NCBI GenBank assembly: GCA_949285665.1
Contig: CASDYC010000001.1
Span: forward strand, 5,376 to 69,375
Length of the DNA: 64,000 nt
Direction of reading: 5' to 3'
Source: an uncultured bacterium
GTDB taxonomy: Bacteria > Bacillota_I > Bacilli_A > RFN20 > CAG-826
The notes under the pieces were generated by a model, which saw only the letters and a program-made list of their open reading frames with translations, made no database searches and was not told the origin of the DNA. This document shows positions 15,689 through 64,000 of the stretch, piece by piece. Position numbers and translations under genes: made by a program. The stretch's first letter is position 1. Each line of letters begins with the position of its first letter.

Positions 15689-15780
15689 AATGATATAAAA
15701 TGCCGATTTTATCGGCTTTTTTTGTTGCTTGGGGGTTATTTGGGGGTTATTTTGGGGGTTATTTGTTTTTTACGTTGACA
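15671..15780. repeat. attL: 110-bp direct repeat (tRNA-Gly 3' end, terminator, 3x GGGGGTTATTT and ACGTTGACA)
   Basis: Near-identical (about 95%) to 61226-61334. The differences are one 5-6-nt block (gttgct versus attct) and one T indel. Confidence 0.85.
15698..15723 (+). terminator. intrinsic terminator after tRNA-Gly (inside the att repeat)
   Basis: GCCGAT ttt ATCGGC stem-loop followed by T7. A copy lies in attR at 61253-61278. Confidence 0.6.
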
Positions 15781-15810
15781 GTAGTGTCAACATTTAAAAT
15801 AATTTAAAAT

Positions 15811-16113
15811 ATGTCAACTTTAATTTATAATTATTACATGAATAATTATTTAACACTTGAAGAATTTGAAAAAGAATTGCTAAAAGATGATGATTTTAAA
15901 GTTGTTTATAAATCAAGTCAAATGGTCGCTAAAATAATTTATTCTTTATCAAATTTTAGAAAAAGTAATGGAATAAGCCAAGAACAATTATCTTCTAAAA
16001 TAGGCATTTCACAAAAAGTAATTAGTAATATCGAACGTTTAAAAGTATCTCCTAATCTTGATACATTATGCAAAATGAAGATTGGTTTAGAAATATTGGT
16101 AAAAGAAAAATAA
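15811..16113 (+). CDS. XRE-family HTH protein (prophage left-end cargo)
   Basis: C-terminal HTH_XRE-like region (ISQEQLSSKIGISQKVISNIERLKVSPNLDTL). Confidence 0.45.
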   Translation: MSTLIYNYYMNNYLTLEEFEKELLKDDDFKVVYKSSQMVAKIIYSLSNFRKSNGISQEQLSSKIGISQKVISNIERLKVSPNLDTLCKMKIGLEILVKEK

Positions 16114-31244: not shown

Positions 31245-31371
31245 AGTATTTTATTTTCCCCTTAATTTTCTGCTCATTTTGCTTTATAATTAAGAGTGCA
31301 AAAGGGCTTAAAAACTCTTGTGTAATCGCTTGTTTTTTCTAGTTTGCCGACTTGTTAAACGGGCGATTTTT

Positions 31372-31554
31372 TTATTGCTTATTGACGTCACCTTCGATTA
31401 ATTTAGCCAAATAAGCACTTTTTGATGGTTGACTTTCAATTTTATCTATTAAGTGTTGTTGTGTATCTTTTCTAAGCATTAATCGATAATATTTATAAGT
31501 CTTTTTCTTGTATTTATAATTGCTTTTATTATCTTTTCTTGGCGTTGTTTTCAC
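31372..31554 (-). CDS. small basic ribbon-helix-helix-like protein (paralog 1 of 3), GTG start
   Basis: KTYKYYRLMLRKD (beta strand), TQQHLIDKIES (helix) and SKSAYLAKLIEGD (helix) follow the Arc/MetJ/CopG pattern. Preceded by GGAAGGGGG. Directly upstream of the amidoligase gene. Confidence 0.4.
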   Translation of the reverse strand: MKTTPRKDNKSNYKYKKKTYKYYRLMLRKDTQQHLIDKIESQPSKSAYLAKLIEGDVNKQ

Positions 31555-31584
31555 CCCCTTCCTTAAGTTGTAGGGCTTCCGCCC

Positions 31585-31680
31585 TTGACTTATACGTTTT
31601 AGTTTCTTATAATAATTGTGAACTTGGTAATCCAGAGATTAATTGTGATTCTAAACTCATAATTAACTCTGGTTTTTTTA
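31585..31680 (+). promoter_or_regulatory. promoter-like site plus intrinsic terminator mini transcription unit (unit 1), antisense to the minus-strand operon
   Basis: TTGACT, a 17-nt spacer and TATAAT at 31585-31613. CCAGAG...CTCTGG hairpin at 31632-31672 followed by T7. Confidence 0.4.
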
Positions 31681-31776
31681 TTTTTCTTTACCTTAAGTCT
31701 CACATTTATAATTAAACGCTTTCGTCAAGGGTTGCCCTATTAGTAAGTAAGTCATATTTAACAACCCCTTACACGT

Positions 31777-31822
31777 ATGTATGCAAGCGTGTTTCCTTGC
31801 TTGCAATAATAATTTAACATAG
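31777..31822. repeat. conserved hairpin block (copy 1): TGCAAGC gtgtttcctt GCTTGCA plus AATAATAATTTAACAT
   Basis: 33 nt identical to 32278-32310. A diverged third copy lies at about 32793-32835. Confidence 0.5.
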
Positions 31823-31856
31823 GCGTTCACCTAATGCAACATATATTTTTATTTTT

Positions 31857-32035
31857 TTATTGTTGCATGTCTTTTTTGATTAAGTTTACTAGATAATCAT
31901 TTTTGCTTTTTTGTTTTTCTATTTTCTCTATTAAGTCTTTTTGATTATCGATTCTTAATCTTAGAGTGTAAGATTTATAAGTCTTTTTGTTGTATCGATT
32001 TTGTCTTATCGTTGATTTTTTGGCGATATTTTCAC
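31857..32035 (-). pseudogene. RHH-like paralog 2; apparent frameshift at an A6 tract near the 5' end
   Basis: The GTG frame gives VKISPKNQR-stop. The +1 frame continues KKSTIRQNRYNKKTYKSYTLRLRIDNQKDLIEKIEKQKSKNDYLVNLIKKDMQQ, which is homologous to paralog 1. One extra A would restore the frame. Confidence 0.3.
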
Positions 32036-32045
32036 CCCCTTCCTA

Positions 32046-32119
32046 TTGATTTTTAAAACTCTCACTGCTATAATGATGCTGAGATATTTGAGATGACTAA
32101 TGTTTAGTCATCTTTTTTT
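32046..32119 (+). promoter_or_regulatory. promoter-like site plus intrinsic terminator mini transcription unit (unit 2)
   Basis: TTGATT, a 17-nt spacer and TATAAT at 32046-32074. 9-bp hairpin AGATGACTA/TAGTCATCT at 32091-32113 followed by T7. Confidence 0.4.
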
Positions 32120-32277
32120 ATCTCATGGATTAATAAAATTAACAAGATTAATGTAATAATTAAATCCATATAATTTATTAACCTTTCTACTATTAAGCAT
32201 TAAACCGGTGTAAGTTTTTTAAGTATGTTTAATAGCAGTGAGAGAAACTTTACACTTTATTAATGTAATAGTCTCAT

Positions 32278-32323
32278 GCGTATGCAAGCGTGTTTCCTTG
32301 CTTGCAATAATAGTTTAGCATAA
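32278..32323. repeat. conserved hairpin block (copy 2)
   Basis: GTATGCAAGCGTGTTTCCTTGCTTGCAATAATA is identical to copy 1. Confidence 0.5.
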
Positions 32324-32396
32324 TGAAACATTATTGCAATACCTTTTTTAAAAATATTTTAATTTTTATTTTTTATTACTGAAGTAATAAGATTTT

Positions 32397-32567
32397 TTAT
32401 TTTTTTAAATCGTTTTGAATTAGCGATAAAATATAAGCGTTTTTTGATTTAACACTTTCTAATTTTTCTATTATATCGCTCTGGGTATCTTTTCTAACTT
32501 GTAATAAATAACGCTTGTATGTCTTTTTTTTATATTTATTACTTGCGATTGTTTGCCTTGTTCCCAT
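32397..32567 (-). CDS. small basic RHH-like protein (paralog 3), ATG start with AAGGGGGA RBS
   Basis: 56 aa: MGTRQTIASNKYKKKTYKRYLLQVRKDTQSDIIEKLESVKSKNAYILSLIQNDLKK. Below the 60-aa cutoff of the ORF track. Same beta-alpha-alpha pattern as the other two. Confidence 0.4.
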   Translation of the reverse strand: MGTRQTIASNKYKKKTYKRYLLQVRKDTQSDIIEKLESVKSKNAYILSLIQNDLKK

Positions 32568-32583
32568 GATTTTATATTCCCCC

Positions 32584-32662
32584 TTGACAAAATAAAAACC
32601 CGTGCCATATAATATTAATGAAAGATTTAGATATTAGAGTTTAGTCATCTAATATCTTTTTT
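32584..32662 (+). promoter_or_regulatory. promoter-like site plus intrinsic terminator mini transcription unit (unit 3)
   Basis: TTGACA, an 18-nt spacer and TATAAT at 32584-32613. GATATTAG/CTAATATC hairpin at 32630-32656 followed by T6. The loop shares GTTTAGTCATCT with unit 2. Confidence 0.4.
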
Positions 32663-32935
32663 ATTTCAATTAATATCTTACGTATTAGAATTAAAAGTAA
32701 AATCTTTTTCATTCTAACGCATCCCCCTTTCTAGTTTTAATCCTAGCTCAAGATTACTAACTAGCGGTTGCCTTATGATGCTATGACACGGGTGCAAGTA
32801 AGCTTTTTCCTTACATGCATTAATAGTATGACATAAGTATATACACATTACAATATATTTTTAATTATTTTTTTATTTTTTTATGCGTGTTTGCGTATGC
32901 TTTCGCGTGCGTGTGTGCGTATGCGTGATTATGTA

Positions 32936-33020
32936 TATATTCTTTTAGATTTATATTATTCTTTCAGATTTATATTATTCTTTGAGATTTATATATATTC
33001 TTTCATATTTATATTTTTAT
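32936..33020. repeat. four tandem ~20-bp iterons (tattctttNagatttata-like)
   Basis: attcttttagatttat / attctttcagatttat / attctttgagatttat / attctttcatatttat in a non-coding stretch. Confidence 0.5.
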
Positions 33021-33316
33021 ATTGTATTTTCTATATCTATTTTTCTTTTTATTTATATGGCAATTTCAAAAATCTTAATTTTTAAAGATGAAAAAGATTA
33101 GAATAAAAAAAGATAATTTGATTAGATTATAAAAGAGGCGATTATTAATTTTTCTATATCATATATCACAATCAAGGTGTTTGATTTTCTTATTTCTTTT
33201 CATCCATCCAGAGCGTTAAAAATTGGCTTAAAATCTTATATTTTTATGTGGTGTCTTTTTCTTGTATTGCTCACATATCTATAAAACACCGATAAAACCG
33301 ATATTTTATAAAGTTT

Positions 33317-33340
33317 GGGGGTTAATTTGGGGGTTAATTT
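33317..33340. repeat. 2x GGGGGTTAATTT, related to the att-site GGGGGTTATTT triplets
   Basis: gggggttaatttgggggttaattt. The same G5TTA(A)TTT motif occurs 3 times in attL, 3 times in attR and once at 61089-61100. Confidence 0.5.
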
Positions 33341-33416
33341 TAGATGATTTATTGGATGTTGCTTCCTCTGGAAGCAAAACAACAACAAAAAAATTTTTAA
33401 ATTTTCTATATATTGG

Positions 33417-33453
33417 AACCCCCACCCGGAAGGCAAATTCACCCCGGGGCGGC
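33417..33453. other. GC-rich palindromic island upstream of the terminase genes (candidate cos/pac region)
   Basis: aacccccacccggaaggcaaattcaccccggggcggc in otherwise about 20%-GC DNA, including the CCCCGGGG palindrome. Preceded by the GCTTCC tct GGAAGC hairpin at 33361-33375. Confidence 0.3.
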
Positions 33454-33658
33454 TAAAATGCAATTATTGTTCTTTTTAAAATTTTCCTTATTTTTTCCTA
33501 TTTTTTTAAATTTTATTATTTTTTTTATATTTTTTTAATGTAAACTTTTCTTGCATTTTTGTCAATAAATGTTGATATTTGTAAACTTTTATGTTTAAAA
33601 TGCAACATTTTATTTACTTTTTGCAAGTCATAATAAAAACTTGCTATTTTTAGTATAC

Positions 33659-33688
33659 TTGACATTAAGTTAGTTAATGATTATATTG
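33659..33688 (+). promoter_or_regulatory. late-operon promoter candidate
   Basis: TTGACA, an 18-nt spacer, then TATATT. The -10 element overlaps the first ATG of the ORF at 33677, so the transcript may be leaderless or start at the ATG at 33695. Confidence 0.35.
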
Positions 33689-52093: not shown

Positions 52094-55000
52094 ATGGCTG
52101 ATAGAAATACTTATTTAAAAATGATGCTTAATAATGGAAAAACTCAAAATTCGAGCATTCCATATGTTAAGGATTATGTTGCAAATTTGGGCTTAAACGA
52201 TGAAGATATCGCTGATTTTCTTATTAAAAATAATGAAATAAACGCAAAACAAATATTAACTGAAAGTCAACAACAACTCCAAACACAAGATCAATCATTT
52301 AATCAAGAAAAAGAAGAAGATAAAAACTGGTGGCAAAATATCGTTGATGGTATGGCTTCAATTGGTAATTCTGTTATTGATGGCATTATGAACTTTGCAG
52401 ATGATATTGGAGACTTCTTTATATCAGTTGGCGATTGGATGATGGGTGGCAATAATGAATGGGCTGATGAAGCAATAAATTATGATTGGCAAGCACAAGT
52501 GACAAATGCTTTAAATTTTATGCAACCATTACTTCAAGTAGTAGATGTTGTTCAAAACTATAATGATTGGGCACAAAGTATTTGGCAAGGTGGAGATACT
52601 TCAAGAGATTATTTAAATGGTATTGTAGAAGGAACTTGGACAGATAATGATTTTGGTAAATTTTTAAGAGATGCTGCAAATTCAATTGGTTATATGCTTC
52701 CTACAATTGCAGTTGGTGTATTAACTGGTGGATCTAGTGCCGCAGCACTTTCAACTATGGGAGTAGTTGCTGGTATGGGACAAACTTCTGATGCTTATCA
52801 AGAAAATAATAATATGGGACTTGCTTTATTAAGTGGTATTGTAGCAGGTGGAATTGAAGCTGGAACTGAAGCAATAGGTGGCTTTATTCCAGGCAGTAAA
52901 ACAATAACAAAAACAACAATTAAAGCTCTTGGAAAACAAATGTTAGAAGAAGGTGCTGAAGAAGTTGTAAGTGGATTTTTACAACCAGTTGTCGATAGTA
53001 TTGCAAAAGGAAATGCAGAACCTTGGTTTGATGAAAATGGACAATTTGTATATTTTTCTCCAGAATTTTGGTTTACTGGGGAAGATAGCGTTGCGAGACA
53101 AGGAGCGTTAGGTGCTTTTACTGGTGGAGTTTTTGGTGGTGCAAATATTGTTCAAAATAGAATTAAATATGGGAAAGCTGGACAACAATTTGGTCAAGCA
53201 TATCAAGAATTTATCGAAACTAGAAATGAAGCCAGAGAATTAAAAAGTAAAAACAAAAGCACAGAAGCAATAGAACAAAAATTAGGAGAAGCAAGTGTTT
53301 ATTTAGCAGAAAAAGCAAATGAGTTAAAAACAGCAATTGAAAACGGAACTATTAGCAATAGACAAGTTAAAAACCTTGGAGAAATGTTACATAATCCAAC
53401 TTCTAATAGAAATTTATTAGCAGAAAATTTAAACGAAAATATAAATAAATTAAATAATATTACAAATTTAAATGAACATATATTAAGAGATTTAGTAAGT
53501 GATTTTAATATTTCAAATAATTCAAACTTTAAATTAGATGTAGTTGATGATTTAAAAGATGTAAATGGTAATAGTGTAAATGCTCAATTTAATGAAAATA
53601 CAAATACTATAAGTCTTAATTCATCTATTTTAGATAATAATGCATATTCAGTATTAGGTCACGAATTATTAGCTCATGGTGTTTTAGATAATATATTAAC
53701 TAACTCAAATACAAGAAGTATAGTTTTTAATTTGGTTAATAATGACACTGAATGGGTTAATCAAAATAAACAAACAATTTTAAAAGAATATAACACAACT
53801 GAAAACTCTGAAATATATAAAAGTGAATTAGTTGCTAATTATTTACAAGAAAAATTAATTAATAATAATTCTTTAAGTGATTTAGAGCTATTAGCAAGCA
53901 ATAAAGGTGTTTTTAAAGAATTTATAAATTCTGCTAAATTAATTATGGAAAACACTAATTCTAGTAAATTAAAACAACAAATTAGAAAAGCAGTTAGACA
54001 ATTTGGAAAAAGCAATTATAGAGTTAATTCGATTGTTTTAAAAATGCTTAATGATAAAAAATTAAACAACAAAGAACAAGAATATTACGACCAAAATAAA
54101 ACATTATTTGATACATATTTTAGCATTATTAATGGTGGATTACTTCAAGAAACAAATGGTGAACTAAAAATTGCTTATAGTAAAGATTTAAACGATGTAG
54201 TAGATGAATTAATTGAAAATAGCGATAAAATTGAAACACGTATCGAAAGTGATAATCAAGGTGAATATGTTGTTTATCAAAATCTAGATTTAAACAACTT
54301 TAATAGAAACGAAAGAAGAATAATATTAAGAAATTATTTAAAACAAAAATTCACAAGTGATTATATTTTCCATATTTCAAGCGATAATACAGAAGCAACC
54401 TTAACAAGTGATGGTCGAGGTAAAATGTCAGATCATGGTTCAAGTGCAGCTGCAAGCGCTAAAATTGAGTTAGAAAATATTTTAAAAATCGCTAAAAAAA
54501 TAAAAGTAGAAGATAGTTATAAATCTAATGAAGATTATACTTATACAACATATAATTCAAGAATATTAATTGGCGAAACAATGTATTCTTTTGATATTGA
54601 TTTAAAAAATTTAAAAGATGGTAATAGAATATATGATATTAAAAATGAAAAAAGCACTCCTGTCAATGGCAGTCTTACAAATGCAGACCTACACCCATCA
54701 GGCAGTGCTTTTCTTAATGATAGTATCTCACAAGAAAATAATTCTGTCAATAGTATTGATAATTTAAACGAAAGGGGTAATAATAATTTATATGAAAGAA
54801 CAGATGAGTTTAGAAGATTACAAGAAGAAAGTAGAAAATTACTTGAAAAATTCCAAAGTGGAGAACAAACTTATAAACAATTGGATGAAAGTATACGAGA
54901 AAGATATACAAGATGCATTCAACAAGCACTGGAAAGCGGAAGAAATAGCAATTCCTATGATTTTAGGTTATTAAAATCTTCTAAAAATACCAAATTTAAC

Positions 55001-58000
55001 ATAACAAATAATATAAATAATAATTTATTTCATGATGCATTTGAAACTATAAAACCTTATATACAACAAAATGAATTAGTTGATTTACACGATGATTATA
55101 CTAATTGTCAATGTTTTTTAAGTTCCGATGGATTACAAGGTTTTGCTATTGAACCAAATGGAAATTTAATTAGTGTTTTTAATGCTGATACAAATAAGAG
55201 AGGATTTGTTGAAGCAATAAGTAATTATGTAAAAGAACATGGTGCTACACATTTAGATTGTTATGGCTATTTAGCAAATTATTATAATAAAGTTTTAGGT
55301 TTTAAAACTGCATCTATAATGGATTATAACATGGAGTATGACCATCACAATATTGCAAGTAATTATAACAATCCACAAGTTGCATTTATGGTTAATACAA
55401 ATGAAAATGTTGAAACAAAACACTTTAATAAAGACCAATATGATGAAGCAGTAGAGTATCAACAATCATTTATTAATAAAGAAAAAATTAAATATTCTAG
55501 GAAATTGAATAATTCACAATTATCTAATGAAGAAAAAGAAAATTTAGCAAAAAAATCATATAATAATTTAAAGAAATTTTCAGTAAACGAAAAGAGAATA
55601 TTGAATAATAATTATAATACAACGTTGAATTCTTTTGACGAAGTAAAACAATATATTAAAGACGCAATTAATGGGAAAGATATTTCAAGGTATGGATTAT
55701 TAGGCAAAATAAGTAAAAATTTGAGCGATAAAATCTTTGAATATACAAATTTAAATTTAAAAGATTATAATTTAGCATTTAATAAAGATAATTTAAAACA
55801 TATATATAAAAGACATGTCGAAAATTTAGCTAATCAAATAAAAATTAATATAGATGACATATATTTATTACCATACTTATTAGAAAATTCAAATGATATA
55901 ACAATTGAAAAAATGAAAAATGGTGATAAATATATTAAATTTATTACAAATTTTAGTGATGAATATATAATTTTTACTTTAAGTTCTAATAAGAATAAAA
56001 GATTAACATTAAAAACTATTTATATAAGAAAAAAAGGAGCTGGCTTCCCAACGGGCAATGCTGATTACCTTAGTAATCCCCCAGCCCTTACGTCCAAAAC
56101 GGATGATGGGGCTTCGTCTCCTTTTACTACTATTAGTTTTACACAAAAAAGTTTTGGTGTCAATAATTTAGATAAAAATACTGCAGTTCAAAAACACAAT
56201 AATAAGTCAAATAATAATACTAAAAACGAAGTTGACATTAATGTTTTAGAAACCAATAAAGCAAATAAAGTTAAAGAAAATGCTAATAAACAATTATGGC
56301 AAAAAGTTATTAGTTTTAAAGATGCAAAAATTGCTTATAATTCTTTAATTGATTTTATTAATAATTCACTTAACATAGATTTAACAGTTAAAAATAAAGA
56401 AACAAAAATTAGAGCCTTATTTGATAGTTATAATGTAAATGAAATAAATAATACTTTAAACGATTTTTCAAAAGACTTATTAAATTCAAAAGTTTATCAA
56501 GGCGTTGAAACGACTTTAAGAGATGTTTTTGAAGCAAACGATTTTGACACTGTCAAACTTGAAAATGCTATGACTAAATCTCTTAAACATGTTTTAGATA
56601 ATAAAGCAAAAACAAGTGAAACAACAAAAATATTTGATAATTTACAATCTCAATTACTTAAAGCAGTTGATTTAATTAATAGATATAAAAATAGAGCAAG
56701 ACAATTTGCTAGTCTTTATAAAAAAGTTGAAAACATTAAAAAGCAATTAAAAATAGAAAATAATAACACCAAATTAACAGATATTAAACTTGATGAAGTT
56801 AACTTACTTAAATATTTAGTAAGCGGAAGAGTATTTACAAAAGATGGTGGAATATCTGGAACTTGGAGAACTAGATTTAATGATCTAATGAAAGAAGATG
56901 TTAATTATTTTTCATCTTTAAGAAATAGTGTTTTTAATGAAAATGGTGAACTTAATAAAGCAATTGAAACTTTTGAATATTTAGGAAATTCATTTGATTT
57001 AAGAAGAAAACAACAAAGAACTTTAAATATAGAAGAAGCTGATGCTTTAATTCAAGCATTTAATAGTGTTTTAAGTGCAATGAACGACTATAAAAACGGC
57101 TATTATGAAAAAGTAGAAAAATTATCAAATGATTTATATTCAGAGCAAAGCGAAATTATAGAAGCAAATAAAAATAAAAGTTTTACATTGTCAAAAATTA
57201 ATCAAATAATATCAAGAGTATCAAGCCCACTTACTAATTTAGCTCTTTATTTTGGTGGTGAAAACACGCACATGTATAAAGAATTAATTGGTAATATTGA
57301 AAATAATTATGAAAGATATTTATTTGACCAATCCGCTTTAAATACTTCGTTAATTAAGAAATTAGAAGGTATTTCTAAAAAAGGTATATTAACTAATCAA
57401 ACTAAGGTTATAAAGAATTTTAAGGGTTTAAAACGCTTAAATAAATGGCATTTATATTCGATGTGGTTAAACTTAAAGGCTGAAAGTAATTTAGCAAGAG
57501 TTAGCGAAAAAGGATTTACACTAAAAGATAAAGTTGGCCAAGTTCAACATATTAATTATGATACAGATTTATTAAGCGATATTGAAAGTCATTTAGATGG
57601 AGTAGAAATTGAGCAACTTCAAGCTTTACTTGATTTTTATAATGTTGAAATTAAAGACTATATTAAAAAGGCTCAAACTAAAATTGATGGATTTAGTAAT
57701 GTTTTAAGTTCAACATATTACCCACAAATTACAAGTAAGAGTGAACTTAAAGGAAATTTAACTGGTGATGAACCATTATTTTTAAGAGATAATGGACAAT
57801 TTAAAAACTTAAAAGCTAGAACAGGAGTTATTACAAGTTTAGATTTAGTAAATCCTCTTGAGCTAGTGAGAAGTTATATTGATAGTGCATCAAGATATTC
57901 AAATCTTACACAAGCTGAAAGATTACTTAATAGAACATTAAATAAAAATATTATTGTAAATAAAGAAACTACATCACTAAGAAAATTATTTAAAGAAAGA

Positions 58001-59851
58001 TATGGAAATGAATTTGAAAAGCAACTTACTTCTTTCTTTAATAAATTAACTGGGAACTTGAATATAGTCAGTGATTCATTAATTGCAAAAATTGGTGGTA
58101 TGAGTTCTGTTGCAATGCTTGGTTTTAATGTCTCAACTGTCTTTAAACAACTTGGTTCTTTACCAATGGCTGGAAATGTTATTGGTTTTAGAAATTTAAT
58201 AAGTGGTTTAAGAGGCAATTTGAGAATTAAAAAACTTCATAATCAATTATATGAAAGTAATGGTTATTATCGTAATAGAGTTGATGAAAATGGCTACGTT
58301 TTTGCAAATACAATGGCTAGTGATGTTGTTTCAAAAGCATCAAATATTAAGAAAAAAATAATTGATTTTTCACTTAAAGGCATGCAAGTCATGGACCAAT
58401 ATGTTGTTCTTCTTTCATATCAAGGAGCGCAAGATTATGTCTATAGACTTCATAATAAAGATATTAATTATAAGCCTGGTAGTGAACTTAATATTAAAGA
58501 AGCAAGCAAAGTTATGAATAAGATTTTACTACAAACTCAATCTAATGCTTATGCCATTTCAACTTCAATGTTAAGAAGTGGCGAAATGGGAGATTTGATG
58601 CGTTATACTTTTGGTGTTTTTGGAAGTGATAATCAAAATAAAATTAGTGAATTATATCAACAATTTGGAACAATAATTAAACAAAGTAATTATATAAAAG
58701 CATTAAAAAAGAAACTTGCAAGTGAATTATCTCAAAGTGATAAAACGCTTTATGGAGCAAGATTAAAAGAAGCTCAATCTAATTATAGGAATGCTGTTAA
58801 AAGATTAACAATGCATAGTATTCCTAATCTTGCAATAGGTGGAGTTATTACATCACTTGTAGCAGTAGTAATGAAATACTTACTTGGTAGAGATAAAGGC
58901 GAAGAATGGGATGATTATTTAATGGAATTTAGTATGGATGCTTTTGTTGATTGGATTCCATTTGTTGGAACTATTTATAATGCATTCCAATATGATGATG
59001 GTAATTTCTCTCCAATTCCATTTGAGCAATTTATTACTTTATTTGAAGTAATTTCTAATTGTTTAACTAAACTATCAAGTGGTAATTTAACTCAAAGAGA
59101 AATAATAACTCAAATTACAAAACTATTTACAGCATTGAGTATGACAGCTGGTATTCCAACTAAAAATGTAACTAACTTAATAATTGGTATTACTGATAAA
59201 TTTTCTGCTCAAACTGCTTTAAATATGCAAAGTTTATTATATGGGTATTCTCAATCTTATTACACTAGACTTATGAAAGAAAGTTTAGAAAGAAAAGATT
59301 ATACAAATTATGCTATATATTACAAAACTAATGCTGAATTATTCAAAGTTAACAAATTAAGTGACAAAGTTTTAAATAAGATAATTAATTTAAAAAAGAT
59401 TGGCTATGATGTAACCTTAAAAAATGTTCCAGATACATTAAAAGATGAAAATGGTGAAGAATTTGTGCTAACTGACAAACAAATTACTGAATTTAGAGAA
59501 GTATATTCACTTGCAAATCAAAGTGCTGTAAATGTTTTAGAAGGTGTTAGATTTAATAAGTTATCAAGTCAAGACCAAGCAGCAGTTTTAAGAAAAGTTT
59601 TTGATGCATATTATGATTATGCAAAAAGTGTAGTTAGTAAAACGGATCCAACAAGTAGAACAGCAAAAGTAATTGCTATGACTGATGGAAAAATTAATAT
59701 ATCTAAATACATTTCTTATGCTCAGGATTTATTAAATATCGATGGCAAAGACAAAAAAGAACAAATAATGAAAAAAATGAAACAATATTATTTAAGTGAT
59801 TTTGAAAAAGATATTGTCTTATATTTAGTTGGTTATGATGTAGAATTGTAA
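52094..59851 (+). CDS. giant virion-associated multidomain protein (polyvalent-protein or tape-measure-like), 2585 aa
   Basis: AAGGAG RBS. Glycine-zipper hydrophobic segment near residues 200-270. A mid-protein segment NLKHIYKRHVENLANQI...YIIFTLSSNKNKRLTLKTIYIRK resembles PBECR/LPD-type toxin modules. C-terminal TM-like helices. Confidence 0.45.
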   Translation: MADRNTYLKMMLNNGKTQNSSIPYVKDYVANLGLNDEDIADFLIKNNEINAKQILTESQQQLQTQDQSFNQEKEEDKNWWQNIVDGMASIGNSVIDGIMNFADDIGDFFISVGDWMMGGNNEWADEAINYDWQAQVTNALNFMQPLLQVVDVVQNYNDWAQSIWQGGDTSRDYLNGIVEGTWTDNDFGKFLRDAANSIGYMLPTIAVGVLTGGSSAAALSTMGVVAGMGQTSDAYQENNNMGLALLSGIVAGGIEAGTEAIGGFIPGSKTITKTTIKALGKQMLEEGAEEVVSGFLQPVVDSIAKGNAEPWFDENGQFVYFSPEFWFTGEDSVARQGALGAFTGGVFGGANIVQNRIKYGKAGQQFGQAYQEFIETRNEARELKSKNKSTEAIEQKLGEASVYLAEKANELKTAIENGTISNRQVKNLGEMLHNPTSNRNLLAENLNENINKLNNITNLNEHILRDLVSDFNISNNSNFKLDVVDDLKDVNGNSVNAQFNENTNTISLNSSILDNNAYSVLGHELLAHGVLDNILTNSNTRSIVFNLVNNDTEWVNQNKQTILKEYNTTENSEIYKSELVANYLQEKLINNNSLSDLELLASNKGVFKEFINSAKLIMENTNSSKLKQQIRKAVRQFGKSNYRVNSIVLKMLNDKKLNNKEQEYYDQNKTLFDTYFSIINGGLLQETNGELKIAYSKDLNDVVDELIENSDKIETRIESDNQGEYVVYQNLDLNNFNRNERRIILRNYLKQKFTSDYIFHISSDNTEATLTSDGRGKMSDHGSSAAASAKIELENILKIAKKIKVEDSYKSNEDYTYTTYNSRILIGETMYSFDIDLKNLKDGNRIYDIKNEKSTPVNGSLTNADLHPSGSAFLNDSISQENNSVNSIDNLNERGNNNLYERTDEFRRLQEESRKLLEKFQSGEQTYKQLDESIRERYTRCIQQALESGRNSNSYDFRLLKSSKNTKFNITNNINNNLFHDAFETIKPYIQQNELVDLHDDYTNCQCFLSSDGLQGFAIEPNGNLISVFNADTNKRGFVEAISNYVKEHGATHLDCYGYLANYYNKVLGFKTASIMDYNMEYDHHNIASNYNNPQVAFMVNTNENVETKHFNKDQYDEAVEYQQSFINKEKIKYSRKLNNSQLSNEEKENLAKKSYNNLKKFSVNEKRILNNNYNTTLNSFDEVKQYIKDAINGKDISRYGLLGKISKNLSDKIFEYTNLNLKDYNLAFNKDNLKHIYKRHVENLANQIKINIDDIYLLPYLLENSNDITIEKMKNGDKYIKFITNFSDEYIIFTLSSNKNKRLTLKTIYIRKKGAGFPTGNADYLSNPPALTSKTDDGASSPFTTISFTQKSFGVNNLDKNTAVQKHNNKSNNNTKNEVDINVLETNKANKVKENANKQLWQKVISFKDAKIAYNSLIDFINNSLNIDLTVKNKETKIRALFDSYNVNEINNTLNDFSKDLLNSKVYQGVETTLRDVFEANDFDTVKLENAMTKSLKHVLDNKAKTSETTKIFDNLQSQLLKAVDLINRYKNRARQFASLYKKVENIKKQLKIENNNTKLTDIKLDEVNLLKYLVSGRVFTKDGGISGTWRTRFNDLMKEDVNYFSSLRNSVFNENGELNKAIETFEYLGNSFDLRRKQQRTLNIEEADALIQAFNSVLSAMNDYKNGYYEKVEKLSNDLYSEQSEIIEANKNKSFTLSKINQIISRVSSPLTNLALYFGGENTHMYKELIGNIENNYERYLFDQSALNTSLIKKLEGISKKGILTNQTKVIKNFKGLKRLNKWHLYSMWLNLKAESNLARVSEKGFTLKDKVGQVQHINYDTDLLSDIESHLDGVEIEQLQALLDFYNVEIKDYIKKAQTKIDGFSNVLSSTYYPQITSKSELKGNLTGDEPLFLRDNGQFKNLKARTGVITSLDLVNPLELVRSYIDSASRYSNLTQAERLLNRTLNKNIIVNKETTSLRKLFKERYGNEFEKQLTSFFNKLTGNLNIVSDSLIAKIGGMSSVAMLGFNVSTVFKQLGSLPMAGNVIGFRNLISGLRGNLRIKKLHNQLYESNGYYRNRVDENGYVFANTMASDVVSKASNIKKKIIDFSLKGMQVMDQYVVLLSYQGAQDYVYRLHNKDINYKPGSELNIKEASKVMNKILLQTQSNAYAISTSMLRSGEMGDLMRYTFGVFGSDNQNKISELYQQFGTIIKQSNYIKALKKKLASELSQSDKTLYGARLKEAQSNYRNAVKRLTMHSIPNLAIGGVITSLVAVVMKYLLGRDKGEEWDDYLMEFSMDAFVDWIPFVGTIYNAFQYDDGNFSPIPFEQFITLFEVISNCLTKLSSGNLTQREIITQITKLFTALSMTAGIPTKNVTNLIIGITDKFSAQTALNMQSLLYGYSQSYYTRLMKESLERKDYTNYAIYYKTNAELFKVNKLSDKVLNKIINLKKIGYDVTLKNVPDTLKDENGEEFVLTDKQITEFREVYSLANQSAVNVLEGVRFNKLSSQDQAAVLRKVFDAYYDYAKSVVSKTDPTSRTAKVIAMTDGKINISKYISYAQDLLNIDGKDKKEQIMKKMKQYYLSDFEKDIVLYLVGYDVEL
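54647..54716. repeat. 70-nt palindromic element inside the giant ORF, about 92% identical to 61649-61718
   Basis: GAAAAAAGCACTCCTGTCAATGGCAGTCTTACAA is identical in both copies. Terminal inverted repeats AAAAGCACTCCTG / CAGGCAGTGCTTTT. Confidence 0.6.
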
Positions 59852-59920: not shown

Positions 59921-60475
59921 ATGATGTTAGATAAAATTACAAGAGATAAAGTCGATTATTTAGTTAGTAACATTTATCAATTATATAATTTAAATATTAA
60001 CGAGCCTTTAAATATCTATTCTTTTGCACAACAACTTGATTTTGTTTTTGCAAATTTAAAAGAAGAGGTATTAAAAGATGTTAAAGGTATTATTTTAATT
60101 GTTCCTGGAGATAAAAAAATAAAAAAAGAATTCGGCTCAGACAAATTAATAGGTTTAAATACTAATTTATCTATGGAAGATAATAACTTAATTATCGCTC
60201 ATGAATTAGGACATTATTTTTTAGATTCAAAAAGAGGGAATGTTTATTTTGCTCATAAATTTACAGATAATAGTGTAGAAGTAAGTAAAAGAAGCGAATT
60301 AGTTGCCAATTACTTTGCTGCCGCATTGTTATTACCTAAAGAAACTTTCATTAATTTATACAATAGTTCAATTGATAAAAAGAATTTTGTTTCCGTTATT
60401 TCAAATAAATATATTGTTCCAAAAAAATGTGTAGAAAGAAGAATTGAAGAATTAATAACAGATGAAACAAAATAA
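59921..60475 (+). CDS. ImmA/IrrE-family zinc metallopeptidase
   Basis: HEXXH motif in IIAHELGHYFLD. 184 aa. At the prophage right end, so it would be adjacent to int/cI in the circular form. Confidence 0.65.
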   Translation: MMLDKITRDKVDYLVSNIYQLYNLNINEPLNIYSFAQQLDFVFANLKEEVLKDVKGIILIVPGDKKIKKEFGSDKLIGLNTNLSMEDNNLIIAHELGHYFLDSKRGNVYFAHKFTDNSVEVSKRSELVANYFAAALLLPKETFINLYNSSIDKKNFVSVISNKYIVPKKCVERRIEELITDETK

Positions 60476-60935
60476 TTTAGATAATTACCTTAATCTTTTT
60501 GTTGAACCAGAAGAAAAAGATTTTGATAAGAAATTGGAAGATTATATAGAGGTCTTTTATAATTATTACAATAAAACATCTAAGTCAAAGATATTTTTCC
60601 AAATGGCTTTTGGTATTTTTATTCCATTATTAATGATATTATTAACGATTTGTTTAATCGTTTTAATGTATTTTCTTTTTGTTAGCGAATTAGATTATGC
60701 TGAAACTATTACAATTTGTATCTCGTCAATTACTGGCTATGTGGTCTCAATAGTTAGTTTATTTAAAATTATTGTTAATTATATTTTTAATAAAAATGAT
60801 TTGAAAGATTCAAATAAAATTTTGAACAATATTATTAAACATAAAGAACGAGATAAAGTGATTGACGATAATATTTCGCAAATCTTAAATTCTATAAATT
60901 TAAAAGATAGCGAAGAAAATAACATTAAAAAATAA
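60462..60935 (+). CDS. small membrane protein, hypothetical
   Basis: 157 aa with 2 TM helices. Confidence 0.3.
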   Translation: MKQNNLDNYLNLFVEPEEKDFDKKLEDYIEVFYNYYNKTSKSKIFFQMAFGIFIPLLMILLTICLIVLMYFLFVSELDYAETITICISSITGYVVSIVSLFKIIVNYIFNKNDLKDSNKILNNIIKHKERDKVIDDNISQILNSINLKDSEENNIKK

Positions 60936-61225: not shown

Positions 61226-61334
61226 TTCTCGCATGGTGCTCCAAATGATATAAAATGCCGATTTTATCGGCTTTTTTTATTCTTTGGGGGTTATTTGGGG
61301 GTTATTTGGGGGTTATTTGTTTTTTACGTTGACA
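61226..61334. repeat. attR: 109-bp direct repeat containing the 3' 18 nt of tRNA-Gly
   Basis: See attL. ttctcgcatggtgctcca, then the terminator, 3x GGGGGTTATTT and gttttttacgttgaca. Confidence 0.85.
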
Positions 61335-61648
61335 TATGTGTAATATAACTTAGTCGAATAAAACTGTCAATATTAATCATTTTAAGAAAGACAATTTAAG
61401 ATACTCTAATATTAAAGCGTTACCTATAACATATTTAATATTAGGTTATGAACAATTAAATGCATCAAACATAGACTAATTTAATGTATATATAATGTTT
61501 AGGAGCAATTATAAATGCAAAATTAAAATAATTAACTAAGGGTGTTAAATAATAATAGAATTTTTGTAATAAAAAATTAATATCAAATATTGTAATTATA
61601 AAGAGTTAATTAAAATAATTTTATTATTATAATGAGTTAATGAGCATA

Positions 61649-61718
61649 GAAAAAAGCACTCCTGTCAATGGCAGTCTTACAATTGCAAACCCACACCCAT
61701 CAGGTAGTGCTTTTCTTA
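61649..61718. repeat. second copy of the 70-nt palindromic element, in the non-coding region right of attR
   Basis: About 92% identical to 54647-54716. Flanked by an A-run and a T-run, so it could act as a terminator. Confidence 0.6.
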
Positions 61719-62165
61719 GTTTCAGTATTGCATACGTAAATAGTGCCGTCAATATAAAAGATTGAAATATAGATAAAAAAATATAAAAAAACTTATCTTT
61801 AGAAATGATTTTATATAAATTATTATTATCAAAAAAATATAAAATGATAAAAAATTAGTTTTGAATATGTTTAAAACATAAGAATTGTTAAATAAAAATT
61901 TTGGATAAATTTAATAAATAGTAACGTTTACACAAAATTATAATTTATTATAAATTTTTTATATTTTATTCCCTAAATTTTTAAAAAATGAATTAATGAT
62001 TGATTTTAAAAAAGTAAAGAAAGAAAAAAATATAGTTAAAAATCTCATTGTTTTTAGATTAATTGTTATTTTTTTGTAAGCGTTTACATTTTTTTCTTTA
62101 CTTAATTTTTAAAAAAATATAAACTATTAATGAAAGTTATGACAACGTTATCATAAGGAGGACTT

Positions 62166-64000
62166 ATGTTTAAAAAATATTTAAAAAAATTATTTATCCT
62201 TATTGTTGGATTTTTGACGTTAACATCTTGTAATGGAGTTCAAGAAGGTTATGAAGGATATTTAACAAATAGTGGCAAAAATGCAGATAAAGTACTAAGA
62301 ACCTTTGGTTCTTGGACAAGAACTGGGATTGGAACACATTATCATGCAGGTCCGGATGCTGGTCCATTAGTTATTTTTGGACTTGAAGGATTAGCACAAT
62401 ACGTTAGAACAACAGATGAAATTGTAATGCTTTTAGCAGAAAAGTTTGAACATAATGGAAATAAAACAACTGTTACTTTAAGAGAAGATGCATATTGGCA
62501 AGATGGTTATCCTGTTATTTCCATGGACTTTTTATCATATTATTATTTAAATCATAACGAAACTGCTGGTTACATGGAAAAAATTGAAGAAATAGATGAT
62601 AAGCATTTTGTTATTACATGGAAAGATTTTTTAACTCCAAGTGATGAAGCAAAAACTTTATTATTAGCACAAGACACAAAAAGTGCATCTGTTCCTTATC
62701 ATATTTTTAAAGATTTTGCAGACCAAGCTATTGAATTAACTAATTCATTAGAAGAATGTCCTGTTACCAATCCATCAAGGAATGCAATGTATTTTAATAA
62801 AAATTGGAACGGAGAAGCTTCTGATAAATATGGGCAAATTTATACTGCATTTAGAGCATATGAGGTTGATGGAACATATCCTTGTACAGGACCATATAAA
62901 TTAGAAGATTATAATGAAACAGTAATGACTTTAGTTAAAAATGAAGATTATTATTTTGCTGATACAATTGGCTTTGATAAGATTGAAGTAACAATGAATC
63001 CAACAGAATCTGTAACACTACAAATGCTCTCAAGTGGTCAAATAGATTATATGGATGGTACACCAATGAAAAGCAAACTAGAAACTGTTTTAGCTCAAAA
63101 TGGTTCTATGGTACATTATAAAATTTTAGATCAAGGAACAATTGGTTTATTATTCAATTTAGAAAAAGAAGTTTGGGAAGATGATAAAGTTAGAGAAGCA
63201 TTCCAATATATTTTTGATAGAGATATGATTAAAAATGTAGCTAATCCTTATGCAGAAACTTCATTTTATTCTATGAGTGGAATGGCTGATTATGAAGCAG
63301 AAAAATACTTAAATCCTGATGATTTTAATAAAATGACCCTTTATGAATATAATCAAAATACTGCTTCAACATTATTACAAGATGCTGGATGGGAAAAGAA
63401 ATCAGACGGATGGTATGATTCAAATAATGAAAAAGTTTCATTAACCTTAGGTTATATTGGTGGTGATCCACATATCGCAATTGCAACAACAGTTCAAGCT
63501 CAATTACAAGATTTTGGAATTGAATTAACGTTAAAATCAACAGAATCTCCAACATCATTACTTGCAAACGCAAGAGTTACTGATAGTGAATATGATTTTA
63601 TGATTTATTTTACTGCATTAAATCCTTGGGGATCTCATCCAGGAGGTGCTATGAAACACTTATGGGCACAAATGGATGCTGCAATGATGCATATTCCAAC
63701 AAATCAAGACACTGGAAGATATCAATTAATATTAGATAAAGCAAATGGTGAAGGGACAATTAACGCTTTTGATACTTATGAAATTATTTATACATTAGAA
63801 GGTAATGAATTAAGAGAAGCAACAGCTGACTTAATTGTTGGATTTTCAAAGAAGAATTATGGAATTAATTTTTATAATAACGTAACAGGTTCATTCTTTA
63901 ATTTAGATACTGTTGGTAACTTACCATTAGTTGATATGTTTAGCGAAAATAGAAATATTACCAAAATATTCTATTATGATGATGCAGAATTTAATTCATT
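62166..64000 (+). CDS. lipoprotein, ABC-transporter substrate-binding-protein-like (OppA/family-5-like); 3' end beyond the window
   Basis: AAGGAGG RBS. Signal peptide with lipobox LTLTSC. The reading frame stays open to the window end in a manual translation. Not in the ORF track because it has no stop codon inside the window. Confidence 0.5.
   Translation, partial: MFKKYLKKLFILIVGFLTLTSCNGVQEGYEGYLTNSGKNADKVLRTFGSWTRTGIGTHYHAGPDAGPLVIFGLEGLAQYVRTTDEIVMLLAEKFEHNGNKTTVTLREDAYWQDGYPVISMDFLSYYYLNHNETAGYMEKIEEIDDKHFVITWKDFLTPSDEAKTLLLAQDTKSASVPYHIFKDFADQAIELTNSLEECPVTNPSRNAMYFNKNWNGEASDKYGQIYTAFRAYEVDGTYPCTGPYKLEDYNETVMTLVKNEDYYFADTIGFDKIEVTMNPTESVTLQMLSSGQIDYMDGTPMKSKLETVLAQNGSMVHYKILDQGTIGLLFNLEKEVWEDDKVREAFQYIFDRDMIKNVANPYAETSFYSMSGMADYEAEKYLNPDDFNKMTLYEYNQNTASTLLQDAGWEKKSDGWYDSNNEKVSLTLGYIGGDPHIAIATTVQAQLQDFGIELTLKSTESPTSLLANARVTDSEYDFMIYFTALNPWGSHPGGAMKHLWAQMDAAMMHIPTNQDTGRYQLILDKANGEGTINAFDTYEIIYTLEGNELREATADLIVGFSKKNYGINFYNNVTGSFFNLDTVGNLPLVDMFSENRNITKIFYYDDAEFNS

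Follow-up and report, generated by a model that had tools for sequence, protein, structure and literature searches.

A predicted antisense RNA unit in the domain linkers of a giant prophage gene, with a stand-alone copy beside a tRNA-Gly attachment site

Introduction

Short cis-encoded countertranscripts such as lambda OOP RNA (77 nt, antisense to the 3' end of cII), IS10 RNA-OUT (a hairpin of ~69 nt), pMV158 RNAII, R1 CopA and hok/Sok consist of little beyond a promoter and a terminator hairpin. The type I antisense RNAs of Firmicute prophages and plasmids, including RatA/txpA, SR4/bsrG and par RNA II/fst, overlap the 3' end of the toxin gene or share a bidirectional terminator with it. The polyvalent proteins of phages and conjugative elements have been described by Iyer et al. 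2017 (PMC5512222), a paper which covers proteins only and which documents extensive domain mosaicism for LPD3/PBECR proteins while giving no known activity for LPD3. In a term search of its text, linkers and promoters did not appear and "hairpin" occurred only in the sense of protein folds.

The locus described here shares several features with the countertranscripts: a promoter of constitutive type is predicted within, and antisense to, a coding region, the predicted transcript measures ~70-95 nt, a long bulged stem-loop doubles as an intrinsic terminator, and the target mRNA would be able to form the mirror-image hairpin. Unlike these systems, the unit lies in frame in a linker between domains, midway along a late gene of 7.7 kb, rather than at a 5' UTR, a ribosome-binding site or a gene end. 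It also differs in that several units are present per gene, with many unrelated RNA bodies behind one conserved promoter module, in that the unit moves with a protein-domain cassette, and in being predicted from sequence. With respect to type I toxin-antitoxin systems, the likeness lies in predicted convergent transcription over a bidirectional-terminator-like hairpin, in the prophage setting and in a putative toxin-type domain (PBECR3). In contrast to those systems, no small hydrophobic toxin ORF lies under the antisense RNA; the sense partner is the linker of a 2585-aa polyprotein, LPD3 is without known toxicity, and the Rfam match to the Sib antitoxin RNA, at 16.5 bits, stayed far below its threshold of 56.

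Results

The giant gene and its prophage

The window, that is the whole stretch of 64 kb which was analyzed, contains a prophage with terminase, portal and head genes. Its sole integrase is of the phage type (17254-18360). The features that define the setting are as follows.

15671-15770, plus strand: attL, overlapping the 3' end of tRNA-Gly(ccc) at 15615-15688
61226-61325, plus strand: attR, with the orphan unit 324 nt to its right
52094-59851, plus strand: giant ORF of 2585 aa, encoding a phage protein of polyvalent type whose central domain cassettes are swappable (ORF list and translation)
54326-54634, plus strand: LPD3 domain (PF18798), Pfam E 3.9e-8, profile positions 10-114 of 114
55706-56035, plus strand: PBECR3 nuclease-like domain (PF18812), residues 1205-1314, Pfam E 1.4e-8, followed by unit 2
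54305-54714, plus strand: swapped cassette (LPD3 and hairpin) relative to a 94.7%-identical gene in L008 (pairwise blastn and alignment)

The giant gene is multidomain, carries both LPD3 and PBECR3 and lies in a phage context, which places it in the polyvalent-protein class of PMC5512222, whose extreme domain mosaicism it shares. Among 50 homologs of the giant protein the central domains varied and included zeta-toxin, ART-PolyVal and LPD3. The LPD3 and PBECR3 segments had no match in GenBank phages by tblastn, and BLASTP between the two domains detected no homology. LPD3 ends ~12 nt before the hairpin of copy A, described below, and homology to L008 resumes at 54715, the 3' edge of that hairpin, so that domain and hairpin were exchanged as one cassette. 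A second cassette breakpoint, between the window and L005, lies ~100 nt from hairpin 2. A search with the flanking gene at 14902-15534 returned only short contigs ending at the att site.

A repeated element that extends beyond its palindrome

The first-pass annotation of this DNA had reported a 70-nt palindromic element in two copies, and both were found at the positions given, copy A at 54647-54716 and copy B at 61649-61718. Since attR ends at 61325, copy B lies 324 nt outside the prophage. The identity, put earlier at about 92% with some 6 differences, was measured as 94% with 4 differences in 70 nt. An exact shared 34-mer, GAAAAAAGCACTCCTGTCAATGGCAGTCTTACAA, the terminal inverted repeats AAAAGCACT-CCTG / CAGG-c-AGTGCTTTT, and the flanking A-run and T-run were all verified, as was the in-frame peptide STPVNGSLTNADLHPSGSAF (residues 854-873 of the 2585-aa ORF 52094-59851). 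The resemblance to a bidirectional terminator was also borne out in shape, with A-run, stem and T-run present. A 31-nt core occurred exactly twice in the 64-kb window when up to 3 mismatches were allowed, compared with 0 expected from shuffled sequence.

Two points had been missed in that reading: the minus strand is the relevant strand, and the 36 nt past the palindrome form a predicted promoter. Similarity between A and B runs rightwards beyond the palindrome to 54752 and 61754, respectively (106 nt, 85%), so the shared segment exceeds the inverted repeats and reaches into the promoter. The right-hand 36 nt of copy B are homologous to the giant-gene codons for SISQENNSVN.

It had been proposed that homologous genes be checked for absence of the segment. 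A hairpin occupied this position in all 11 homologous genes, its sequence unrelated from one cassette to another, so that none of them offers an empty site. A check for additional genomic copies, covering one genome each from 185,579 species, yielded a single further copy, at the orthologous site. No match was obtained with A-type element patterns in IMG/VR and JGI metagenomes, with a stem-based pattern search of genome contigs, or by blastn of the element against GenBank phages. Two exact 19-mer matches in IMG/VR, both within a capsid-like gene rich in GC, were dismissed as chance, only 19-22 nt being alike. At gathering threshold an Rfam scan of the window returned tRNAs only, and in E-value scans of copy A, of unit 2 and of the spacer all scores stayed below threshold (mir-3431, 17.4 vs 100 bits; SIB_RNA, 16.5 vs 56 bits; SpF01, 29.8 vs 55 bits). 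We found neither an Rfam family nor a paper describing such a unit.

A conserved promoter predicted on the minus strand

The predicted promoters of the two copies and the RNA bodies downstream of them are listed here.

54722-54750, minus strand: unit 1 promoter, -35 TTGACA at 54745-54750, 17-nt spacer ending TGTGA, -10 GATACT at 54722-54727 (promoter scan)
61724-61752, minus strand: orphan unit promoter, -35 TTGACG at 61747-61752, 17-nt spacer ending TATGC, -10 AATACT at 61724-61729 (promoter scan)
54647-54716, minus strand: copy A, the unit 1 RNA body, a predicted RNA of ~70 nt forming a 27-pair bulged hairpin, 5' end near 54715, 3' U6 corresponding to the plus-strand A-run 54648-54653
61649-61718, minus strand: copy B, the orphan RNA body, the copy A hairpin with 4 substitutions, predicted 5' end near 61717 and 3' end within 61650-61655

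Read on the minus strand, both copies have the layout TTGAC(A/G), 17 nt ending TRTG(n), nATACT, ~7 nt, a 66-nt bulged hairpin and U6. On the plus strand the unit 1 promoter encodes the SISQENNSVN peptide, and copy A encodes linker residues 852-875. In the 18 units tabulated (17 distinct sequences) the -35 box was conserved with counts of T17 T17 G16 A16 C16 A15, the spacer was 17 nt long in every one with its interior free to vary, and T-R-T-G and nATAnT were near-invariant, A2, A4 and T6 of the -10 box being kept. The first base of the -10 box is often G (GATACT), which is off consensus. The conserved sequence corresponds to a sigma-70/sigma-A promoter with a -16/extended -10 element, its activity being a prediction. 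With respect to specificity, a strict promoter pattern gave 15 matches in 468 kb, both strands included, all 15 of which were such units, and combining promoter, closed structure and T-run gave 4 matches in the whole window, of which 3 were these units. Promoter-like hexamers overall were not enriched in this AT-rich DNA (14 vs 14.3 expected; 54 vs 58.5). Elsewhere, the identical promoter pattern was seen at ordinary intergenic promoters, for example in L069, where a ribosome-binding site and ATG follow.

The coding strand mirrors these constraints. Opposite the promoter TG the codon is TCA, ACA, GCA or CCA (Ser, Thr, Ala or Pro) in all units except the diverged L033 unit, which has ACT at this position; the CA dinucleotide is fixed and the amino acid variable. 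Wherever the VN motif is kept, Val is encoded by GTC, a codon accounting for 8.9% of Val codons in this gene. The spacing, the NCA codon and the GTC codon, together with the stems and the recoding results described below, are evidence for constraint on DNA or RNA rather than on protein.

Predicted RNA structure and termination

Folding of copy A gave -29.2 kcal/mol on the minus strand (z -4.6) and -19.9 on the plus strand. The palindrome is far from chance: no other 80-nt segment of the 64-kb window, on either strand, folded as stably as the minus strand of copy A, and copy B (-27.1) ranked fourth. The substitutions in copy B are all structure-neutral, falling in a bulge, at an unpaired base, at a G-C pair which becomes G·U, and in the loop. 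Synonymous recoding of copy A produced no sequence as stable in 1000, and recoding of unit 2 produced 3 in 1000 in the minus sense.

Strand asymmetry was consistent. The G·U pairs of the stem are valid in the minus sense only, and all 12 of 12 units folded more stably in that sense. In L031, a T-to-C change kept the minus fold (-28.4) and weakened the plus fold from -19.8 to -15.5. Across A-type sequences, 97.5% of the cells for the 27 pairs were paired vs 44-56% when partners were slid; 3 pairs were altered on both sides and 3 G·U pairs were invariant. Covariation on the RNA strand was likewise found for the T5 type and between L018 and L041 (3 compensatory pairs), although the independent lineages number about five and the covariation counts are therefore small. 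The arms of a quasi-palindrome can also co-evolve by template switching without selection.

With respect to termination, the minus-strand closing stem is followed by U4-U7 in all related-prophage units and in both orphans, and intrinsic termination is predicted there. Plus-strand tails are broken after 3-4 U, so that canonical U-tracts occur on the minus strand only. A terminator scan, which accepts loops of 3-8 nt, called neither A nor B, since both hairpins exceed its loop and stem limits. Comparison among units thus supports the predicted anatomy of promoter, closed RNA and intrinsic terminator, with predicted start and end.

Other units and their distribution

A second unit follows the PBECR3 domain of the same gene.

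56030-56163, minus strand: unit 2, -35 TTGACA at 56158-56163, 17-nt spacer (..TGTGT), -10 AAAACT at 56135-56140, predicted 5' end near 56128, U7 corresponding to the plus-strand A-run 56030-56035

Its RNA is of a different type, branched and ~95 nt long, closed by AAAGGAG/CTCCTTT; over 155 nt, unit 2 matches the first-position unit of L037 at 82.6% identity. All 11 of the related giant genes from prophages had the antisense layout, and among them at least 5 unrelated RNA sequences were represented. It was also present in three unrelated contigs of 37-46% GC, namely L018 (with its relative L041), L048 and L093, each of which has at least one unit right after a Pfam-supported LPD3. Overall, at least 8 unrelated RNA types were counted, and units usually lie directly 3' of an LPD3 or PBECR3 domain. 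Some were imperfect: the L033 unit, with TTGCTA, is without the TG, the U-tails of L041 and L048 are poor, and the -35 box of L093 is weak.

When 22 other IMG/VR polyvalent-gene loci were scanned, clear units were found in L018 only; the remaining 21 (L009-L017 and L019-L030) had no convincing unit, and three matches looked spurious. As L018 alone was positive, we do not claim that the feature is universal. A single-sequence LPD3 query for related loci added L041 only. None of the loci retrieved contained an orphan of another RNA type.

The chromosomal orphan

Copy B is a stand-alone copy of exactly this unit, derived from such a gene and placed beside the tRNA-Gly att site; it resembles the giant gene from the U-tract up to the -35 box and no further. 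The first-pass annotation had offered that the outside copy might be a fossil of a related giant gene. Derivation from giant-gene sequence was upheld, but a mere fossil does not account for the sharp ends at the -35 box and the U-tract, with no remnant beyond. No giant-gene remnants were detected around copy B, where blastx connected to residue 918 only through K/N-rich low-complexity matches. No second degenerate att site was found to the right of copy B, and no direct repeat indicative of target-site duplication was seen flanking it.

An orthologous orphan, copy C, is present in L039, a prophage-free genome with an empty tRNA-Gly att site. Between copies B and C the hairpin is 94% identical without indels, whereas the spacer alongside shows 76% identity and 72 gap columns. 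The copy C promoter reads TTTACA-17-(TATGT)-AATACT with a diverged spacer; both non-coding orphans keep the promoter despite diverged spacers. Neither orphan has an adjacent LPD3 gene. Copy B was also considered as a small protein gene and this was rejected, the 41-aa ORF being hydrophilic and without a ribosome-binding site and the orthologous copy carrying an in-frame stop codon. Similarity among the orphans could be maintained, in the absence of any function, through gene conversion from phage copies.

Discussion

Taken together, a compact minus-strand unit, its placement in the phage gene, its stand-alone copy and a countertranscript function make up the reading that we consider the probable one. 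Within it, the phage unit lies antisense and in frame, in the linker after LPD3 or PBECR3, and moves with the domain as a cassette. By analogy with the described systems, its most likely function is that of a cis-antisense countertranscript. A sigma-A/sigma-70 promoter with a -16 TRTG/extended -10 element would start the transcript at the base of the closing stem. The RNA would fold as a closed bulged hairpin, branched in other types, and end in the adjoining U-tract. Its stem-loop would then pair, probably loop to loop, with the mirror-image stem-loop of the giant-gene mRNA. Such pairing would lower giant-gene expression when the late operon should be silent, possibly by duplex cleavage, translation block or premature termination, and the chromosomal copy would supply a near-identical RNA in trans. 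A much wider proposal, to which we give little credence at present, is that these units form an undescribed class of small-RNA genes in polyvalent-gene linkers after LPD3/PBECR, each cassette with its own RNA, and that at least one has been domesticated beside an att site as a trans-antisense immunity silencing the giant genes of incoming or resident phages with the same cassette.

The RNA may be made and yet serve as partner of the neighbouring domain, as an antitoxin or inhibitor of LPD3 or of PBECR3 (a predicted RNase) in the manner of type III systems, or as a cofactor or decoy against host defences. We regard this as unlikely, though it would suit the finding that units follow LPD3/PBECR3 in four lineages and move as cassettes. 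The RNAs are also closed, elaborately folded and specific to their type, features that cis-antisense action by itself would not require, and the closing stem of L041 is kept by the 3 compensatory changes though its U-tail has decayed. LPD3, however, is without known activity (PMC5512222), and the orphans adjoin no LPD3 gene. The layout differs as well, known type III antitoxins being tandem repeats upstream of the toxin and on the same strand.

The countertranscript reading has also to be set against an explanation at the level of DNA, in which the hairpins are cassette boundaries, either recombination hot spots or template-switched quasi-palindromes that aid domain shuffling, the promoter-like motif is a homology linker and copy B a by-product. 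The position of the window/L008 breakpoint exactly at the hairpin 3' edge, the sharp ends of copy B and its orthologue at the unit, where synteny breaks, and the extensive LPD3/PBECR mosaicism (PMC5512222) speak for this explanation. Integron attC sites offer a parallel, being imperfect hairpins with a bulged base at the 3' end of a swappable cassette, variable in sequence and conserved in structure. Unlike attC, the element ends in GAAAAAAGCAC ... GTGCTTTTCTTA and has no RYYYAAC/GTTRRRY core sites, neither an integron integrase nor another dedicated recombinase is nearby, the cassettes are protein domains within one ORF, and the promoter and U-tract point to RNA. Moreover, the positions conserved are those of a promoter (-35, TRTG, A2/A4/T6 and 17-nt spacing) with the spacer interior free, unlike a homology block, and the promoter is kept in the non-coding orphans. 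Canonical U-tracts on the minus strand only and the G·U asymmetry favour one strand as RNA, and the window/L005 breakpoint is ~100 nt off hairpin 2. On this evidence we judge the explanation to be quite improbable.

Equally doubtful is the view that copy B is the decaying relic of a giant gene from a previous prophage at this att site and that the hairpin within the gene is a bidirectional terminator or insulator tolerated in a linker, neither giving a functional RNA. Copy B does contain 36 nt homologous to coding sequence in the orientation of the resident prophage, it lies in phage-like DNA beside an unusually long att identity, and the A-run, stem and T-run have the shape of a bidirectional terminator. 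A relic would not be expected to lack any other flanking gene remnant, to keep its hairpin free of indels between two genomes beside a spacer with many, to confine its substitutions to three structure-preserving changes in the stem region and a fourth in the loop, or to retain promoter elements in both orphans.

Rickettsia palindromic elements and in-frame MITEs resemble the element in being palindromes translated as a tolerated peptide segment, but the present element is neither dispersed nor multicopy, has no empty site, comes with a conserved promoter and keeps a fixed position after a given type of domain. The suggestion of a MITE/REP-like mobile palindrome of this kind, inserted in frame in the gene and again in the spacer, drew on its terminal inverted repeats, its one coding and one non-coding site and its in-frame translation, but is largely refuted and extremely improbable given 2 copies in 64 kb, a single further copy, at the orthologous site, in scans that covered genomes, viruses and metagenomes, the presence of a hairpin here in 11 of 11 homologous genes, no target-site duplication seen, and a shared segment which passes the inverted repeats into the promoter.

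If the predicted transcripts exist, dual coding would here operate at the scale of modules, and the sequence of an interdomain linker would owe more to the RNA gene opposite it than to the protein. The motif [S/N]-I-[S/T/A/P]-x5-V-N after LPD3/PBECR would then be explained as the mirror image of a promoter, and as a caution for annotation, conserved linker peptide motifs can reflect nucleotide-level signals. In the orphan at the att site, the host would have kept a regulatory RNA of phage origin. For the polyvalent proteins, which are key weapons of phage-host conflict, the units would add a layer of RNA, and they would offer a testable handle on how toxin-laden giant genes are silenced or processed.

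The two copies and their prophage setting

The first-pass annotation had described a palindrome present both in a giant gene and in the chromosomal spacer right of attR. Both copies (A, 54647-54716, and B, 61649-61718) were located with the first 34 nt identical; where about 6 differences and 92% identity had been given, they differ at 4 positions in 70 nt (94% identity). The similarity runs on to 54752 and 61754 (106 nt, 85%), and a 31-nt core was found exactly twice in the window versus not at all in shuffled sequence. The att context was as described, with a prophage carrying integrase, terminase, portal and head genes between the two att sites. The distance from attR to copy B, outside the prophage, is 324 nt; the spacer that contains copy B is AT-rich, 840 nt long and located upstream of a solute-binding-protein gene.

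Features of the two copies and the second unit
15671-15770: attL, overlapping the 3' end of tRNA-Gly(ccc)
61226-61325: attR, prophage right boundary
52094-59851: giant ORF, 2585 aa, near the prophage right end
LPD3 domain of the giant ORF: ends about 12 nt before hairpin A (Pfam E 3.9e-8)
PBECR3 domain of the giant ORF: residues 1205-1314 (Pfam E 1.4e-8)
54750..54722, minus: predicted promoter of unit 1 (copy A), TTGACA-17-GATACT with TG, from promoter scan
61752..61724, minus: predicted promoter of the orphan unit (copy B), TTGACG-17-AATACT with TG, from promoter scan
56158-56163 (-35) to 56030-56035 (U7), minus: second unit, after PBECR3, branched RNA of about 95 nt

The att sites are identical over an unusual length (100 nt, weaker to about 150 nt; window 15671-15820 and 61226-61375; 3900-4046 in L039, a prophage-free genome with the same arrangement). 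This stretch includes the 3' end of tRNA-Gly and a terminator hairpin (GCCGATTTTATCGGC-T7), together with TTGACA...TGTCAA inverted repeats and three repeats of GGGGGTTATTT. Just right of attR, a promoter-like site on the minus strand (61342-61370, TTGACA-17-TATATT, 11/12 consensus positions) is directed into the prophage. Within the prophage, a 2.4-kb block without long ORFs (31244-33677) contains three repeats of about 107 nt (31411-31517, 31893-31999 and 32433-32539; 71-72% identity, about 500 nt spacing), 43-nt repeats with an internal palindrome (31779-31821 and 32280-32322; 95%), GGGGGTTAATTT repeats at 33304-33353 similar to those of the att site, and a promoter with a GC-rich closed structure at 33544 on the minus strand. 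This block may serve as an origin, have a regulatory role or encode non-coding RNA.

A predicted promoter module on the minus strand

The similarity of A and B extends 36 nt past the palindrome, and is confined there to certain positions, because the predicted promoter sites lie in this stretch. In 11/11 giant genes and in copy B the same minus-strand layout was observed: a -35 box, a 17-nt spacer ending in TRTG plus one base, a -10 box of the form nATAnT, 6-11 nt, a closed structure whose first base is paired with the last base before the U-tract, and the U-tract itself. TRTG with an extended -10 is a known signature of strong Firmicutes sigma-A promoters. When 18 units were tabulated and their 17 distinct sequences counted, the -35 positions scored T17 T17 G16 A16 C16 A15, the T-R-T-G positions 17, at least 13, 16 and 17, and the -10 positions A17, T15, A17 and T17; the spacer was 17 nt in 18/18 units, its interior freely variable. 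Imperfect units also exist, in which the -35 is weak, the TG missing or the U-tail decayed.

As judged from codon choice and comparison, the constraint on the promoter region acts on DNA and not on protein. Valine opposite the -35 is always encoded by GTC, which makes up 8.9% of the Val codons of this gene, and the codon opposite TG is TCA, ACA, GCA or CCA (Ser, Thr, Ala, Pro), ending in CA except in L033, a diverged unit with an ACT codon and no TG. In L018, a giant gene outside the clade, the spacer residues are DLLDF versus QENNS, and only the residues overlapping the hexamers are in common.

Promoter-like hexamers overall were not enriched in this AT-rich DNA. The strict pattern TTGAC[AG]-N13-15-TGn-nA[TC]A[ACT]T gave 15 matches in 468 kb on both strands, and 15/15 were such units. 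Four sites in the whole window passed a combined test that asked for a good promoter, a T-run, a closed structure beginning no more than 14 nt away and a free energy of -18 kcal/mol or below; three of them are A, B and the second unit.

Strand and conservation of the hairpin

Modelled as RNA, copy A gave -29.2 kcal/mol on the minus strand (z -4.6) versus -19.9 on the plus strand, and copy B -27.1 versus -20.2. In a sliding 80-nt scan of both strands, copy A was the most stable fold in the window, tRNAs included, and copy B the fourth. Of the 4 differences between them, one lies in a bulge, one at an unpaired base and one at a loop base, and one turns a G-C into G·U. In the related prophage L005, the orthologous segment (84% identity to copy A) carries a double compensatory change of the outer stem, GCACT/AGTGC to GCGTT/AACGC, each of its two parts causing an amino-acid change (T to V and S to N). 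With a further T-to-C change in L031 (V to A), the affected pair reads G·U as minus-strand RNA and C·A as plus-strand RNA; the fold is kept at -28.4 on the minus strand, while on the plus strand it falls from -19.8 to -15.5. Across six sequences, the 27-pair structure was 97.5% paired versus 44-56% in slid controls, with 3 pairs changed on both sides and 3 G·U pairs invariant. When the linker was recoded with synonymous codons drawn according to the gene's own usage, 0/1000 sequences reached the observed stability on the minus strand (mean -14.8, sd 3.3) versus 30/1000 on the plus strand. Where the linkers are unrelated, so are the structures at this position, but they are just as strong and are the top local folds of their genes. 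A simple terminator scan did not call these long hairpins.

Elsewhere, a very stable local fold on both strands (29831-29910; -25 / -28 kcal/mol, z -3.3) lies inside a minus-strand ORF (29323-29994) and has a GC-rich stem GGGGCCGG...CCGGCCCC. A sub-threshold Rfam match to the Streptococcus sRNA SpF01 on the plus strand (61618-61723; 29.8 bits versus a gathering score of 55) depends on the AAGCACU/AGUGCUUUU stem of copy B and a AUUUUAUU leader, and is probably a coincidental terminator-like resemblance.

Linker units and domain cassettes

The giant ORF is a polyvalent-type phage protein. Its 50 homologs have the N- and C-terminal thirds in common, with central domains (zeta toxin, ART-PolyVal, LPD3, PBECR3) swapped, and such mosaicism has been described for polyvalent proteins (PMC5512222). 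The palindrome codes for part of the post-LPD3 linker, which is related in homologs with the same LPD3 subtype and unrelated in others; a NISQNExxVN-like motif follows the linker in almost all homologs.

The DNA of ten further giant genes was compared with the window gene. The L008 gene is 94.7% identical except at 54305-54714 (LPD3 and hairpin); from 54715, where the hairpin has its 3' edge, the two genes are homologous again, including the common promoter. With L005 the swapped block is the PBECR3 region, and homology resumes about 100 nt past hairpin 2. The second unit is 82.6% identical over 155 nt to the first-linker unit of L037, and therefore domain and unit move as a block. That the hairpins are instead DNA-level recombination features is a rival reading.

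Among the related prophages, the chromosomal sites differ, as does the cargo directly after the giant gene, for example an M78 peptidase and a membrane protein in the window (59921-60935), L005 and L031, DUF3800 in L008 and L032, and defence-gene-like AAA_21/RloB or AAA_15/SMC_N pairs in L033-L038.

Units were also found outside the clade, with about five independent lineages represented in all. In L018 (46% GC), three units run antisense to an open frame of 2238 aa, one of them directly after LPD3; L041, a relative of L018, has kept the post-LPD3 unit with 3 compensatory pairs and a decayed U-tail. A generic promoter pattern gave 51 loci in JGI metagenomes, for the most part ordinary intergenic promoters; the sole one antisense within a giant ORF, L048 (37% GC), lies directly after LPD3, and downstream of its promoter comes a hairpin closed by an 11-bp stem. 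L093 (44% GC) has TGTGA-TATACT, a closed RNA and U7 directly after LPD3. The other 21 IMG/VR loci showed no convincing unit (3 matches looked spurious), and the feature is therefore not universal.

The orphan units

Copy B resembles the giant gene from the U-tract to the -35 box, and nothing else gene-like was found in its spacer by blastx or tblastx; copy B is therefore one unit only. When one genome per species was scanned by pattern, just one more copy, C, turned up, in the MAG of an uncultured member of the Bacilli (CALVNF010000002.1, L039), at the orthologous site beside tRNA-Gly(ccc) without a prophage.

Identity of the window and L039 around the orphan unit
Left chromosomal flank: 95.7%
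att repeat: 94%
Spacer between att and unit: 76%, 72 gap columns
Hairpin: 94%, no indels
Promoter region: 62%
Right of unit: 53%, near the chance level for AT-rich DNA; not a real similarity

The L039 promoter region retains a -35 (TTTACA), TATG, AATACT and the 17-nt spacing. Synteny breaks exactly at the promoter end of the unit (L039, reverse complement, 4505-5743 versus window 61755-64000), beyond which lie, in the window, a spacer of 410 nt and an SBP_bac_5 gene and, in the MAG, a different 337-aa gene. Copy C carries an in-frame stop, so the orphans are non-coding; the 41-aa ORF over copy B has no ribosome-binding site.

The proposal that the outside copy is a fossil of a giant gene holds as to origin, the orphans deriving from giant-gene sequence, but the remnant coincides exactly with a predicted transcription unit, which has been conserved better than the DNA around it. 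A rival reading sees in copy B just a relic and in the hairpin of the gene a terminator only. Gene conversion from phage copies, instead of selection, is an alternative explanation of the conservation. As direct repeats at a distance of 7 kb, A and B (54647-54680 and 61649-61682) share 34 identical bases. If they recombined, the 3'-terminal 5 kb of the giant gene would be lost together with the two genes downstream of it and attR, and the prophage would be locked in place.

Possible function

The MITE reading of the palindrome is largely refuted. The comparisons support a unit composed of a predicted promoter, closed RNA and terminator on the minus strand. Rfam gave no family at threshold, full-text literature searches returned no report of such units, and a term search of PMC5512222 found linkers and promoters unmentioned and 'hairpin' used for protein folds only. 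Antisense small-RNA genes are already familiar; the literature found describes no modular units that lie in frame in interdomain linkers, travel with domain cassettes and have an orphan in the chromosome at an att site.

Given its position next to LPD3 or PBECR3, the RNA might be a partner or antitoxin of the neighboring domain. Most likely, we infer, it would act as a countertranscript. The layout matches that of known short countertranscripts, among them lambda OOP, IS10 RNA-OUT and pMV158 RNAII, and that of the convergent antisense RNAs at Firmicute type I toxin-antitoxin loci. The predicted RNA would pair with the mirror-image hairpin of the giant-gene mRNA and so lower expression of the giant gene; sense transcription may in addition be attenuated by the plus-sense hairpin, whose U-tail is weaker. 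An almost identical RNA would be provided in trans by the orphan.
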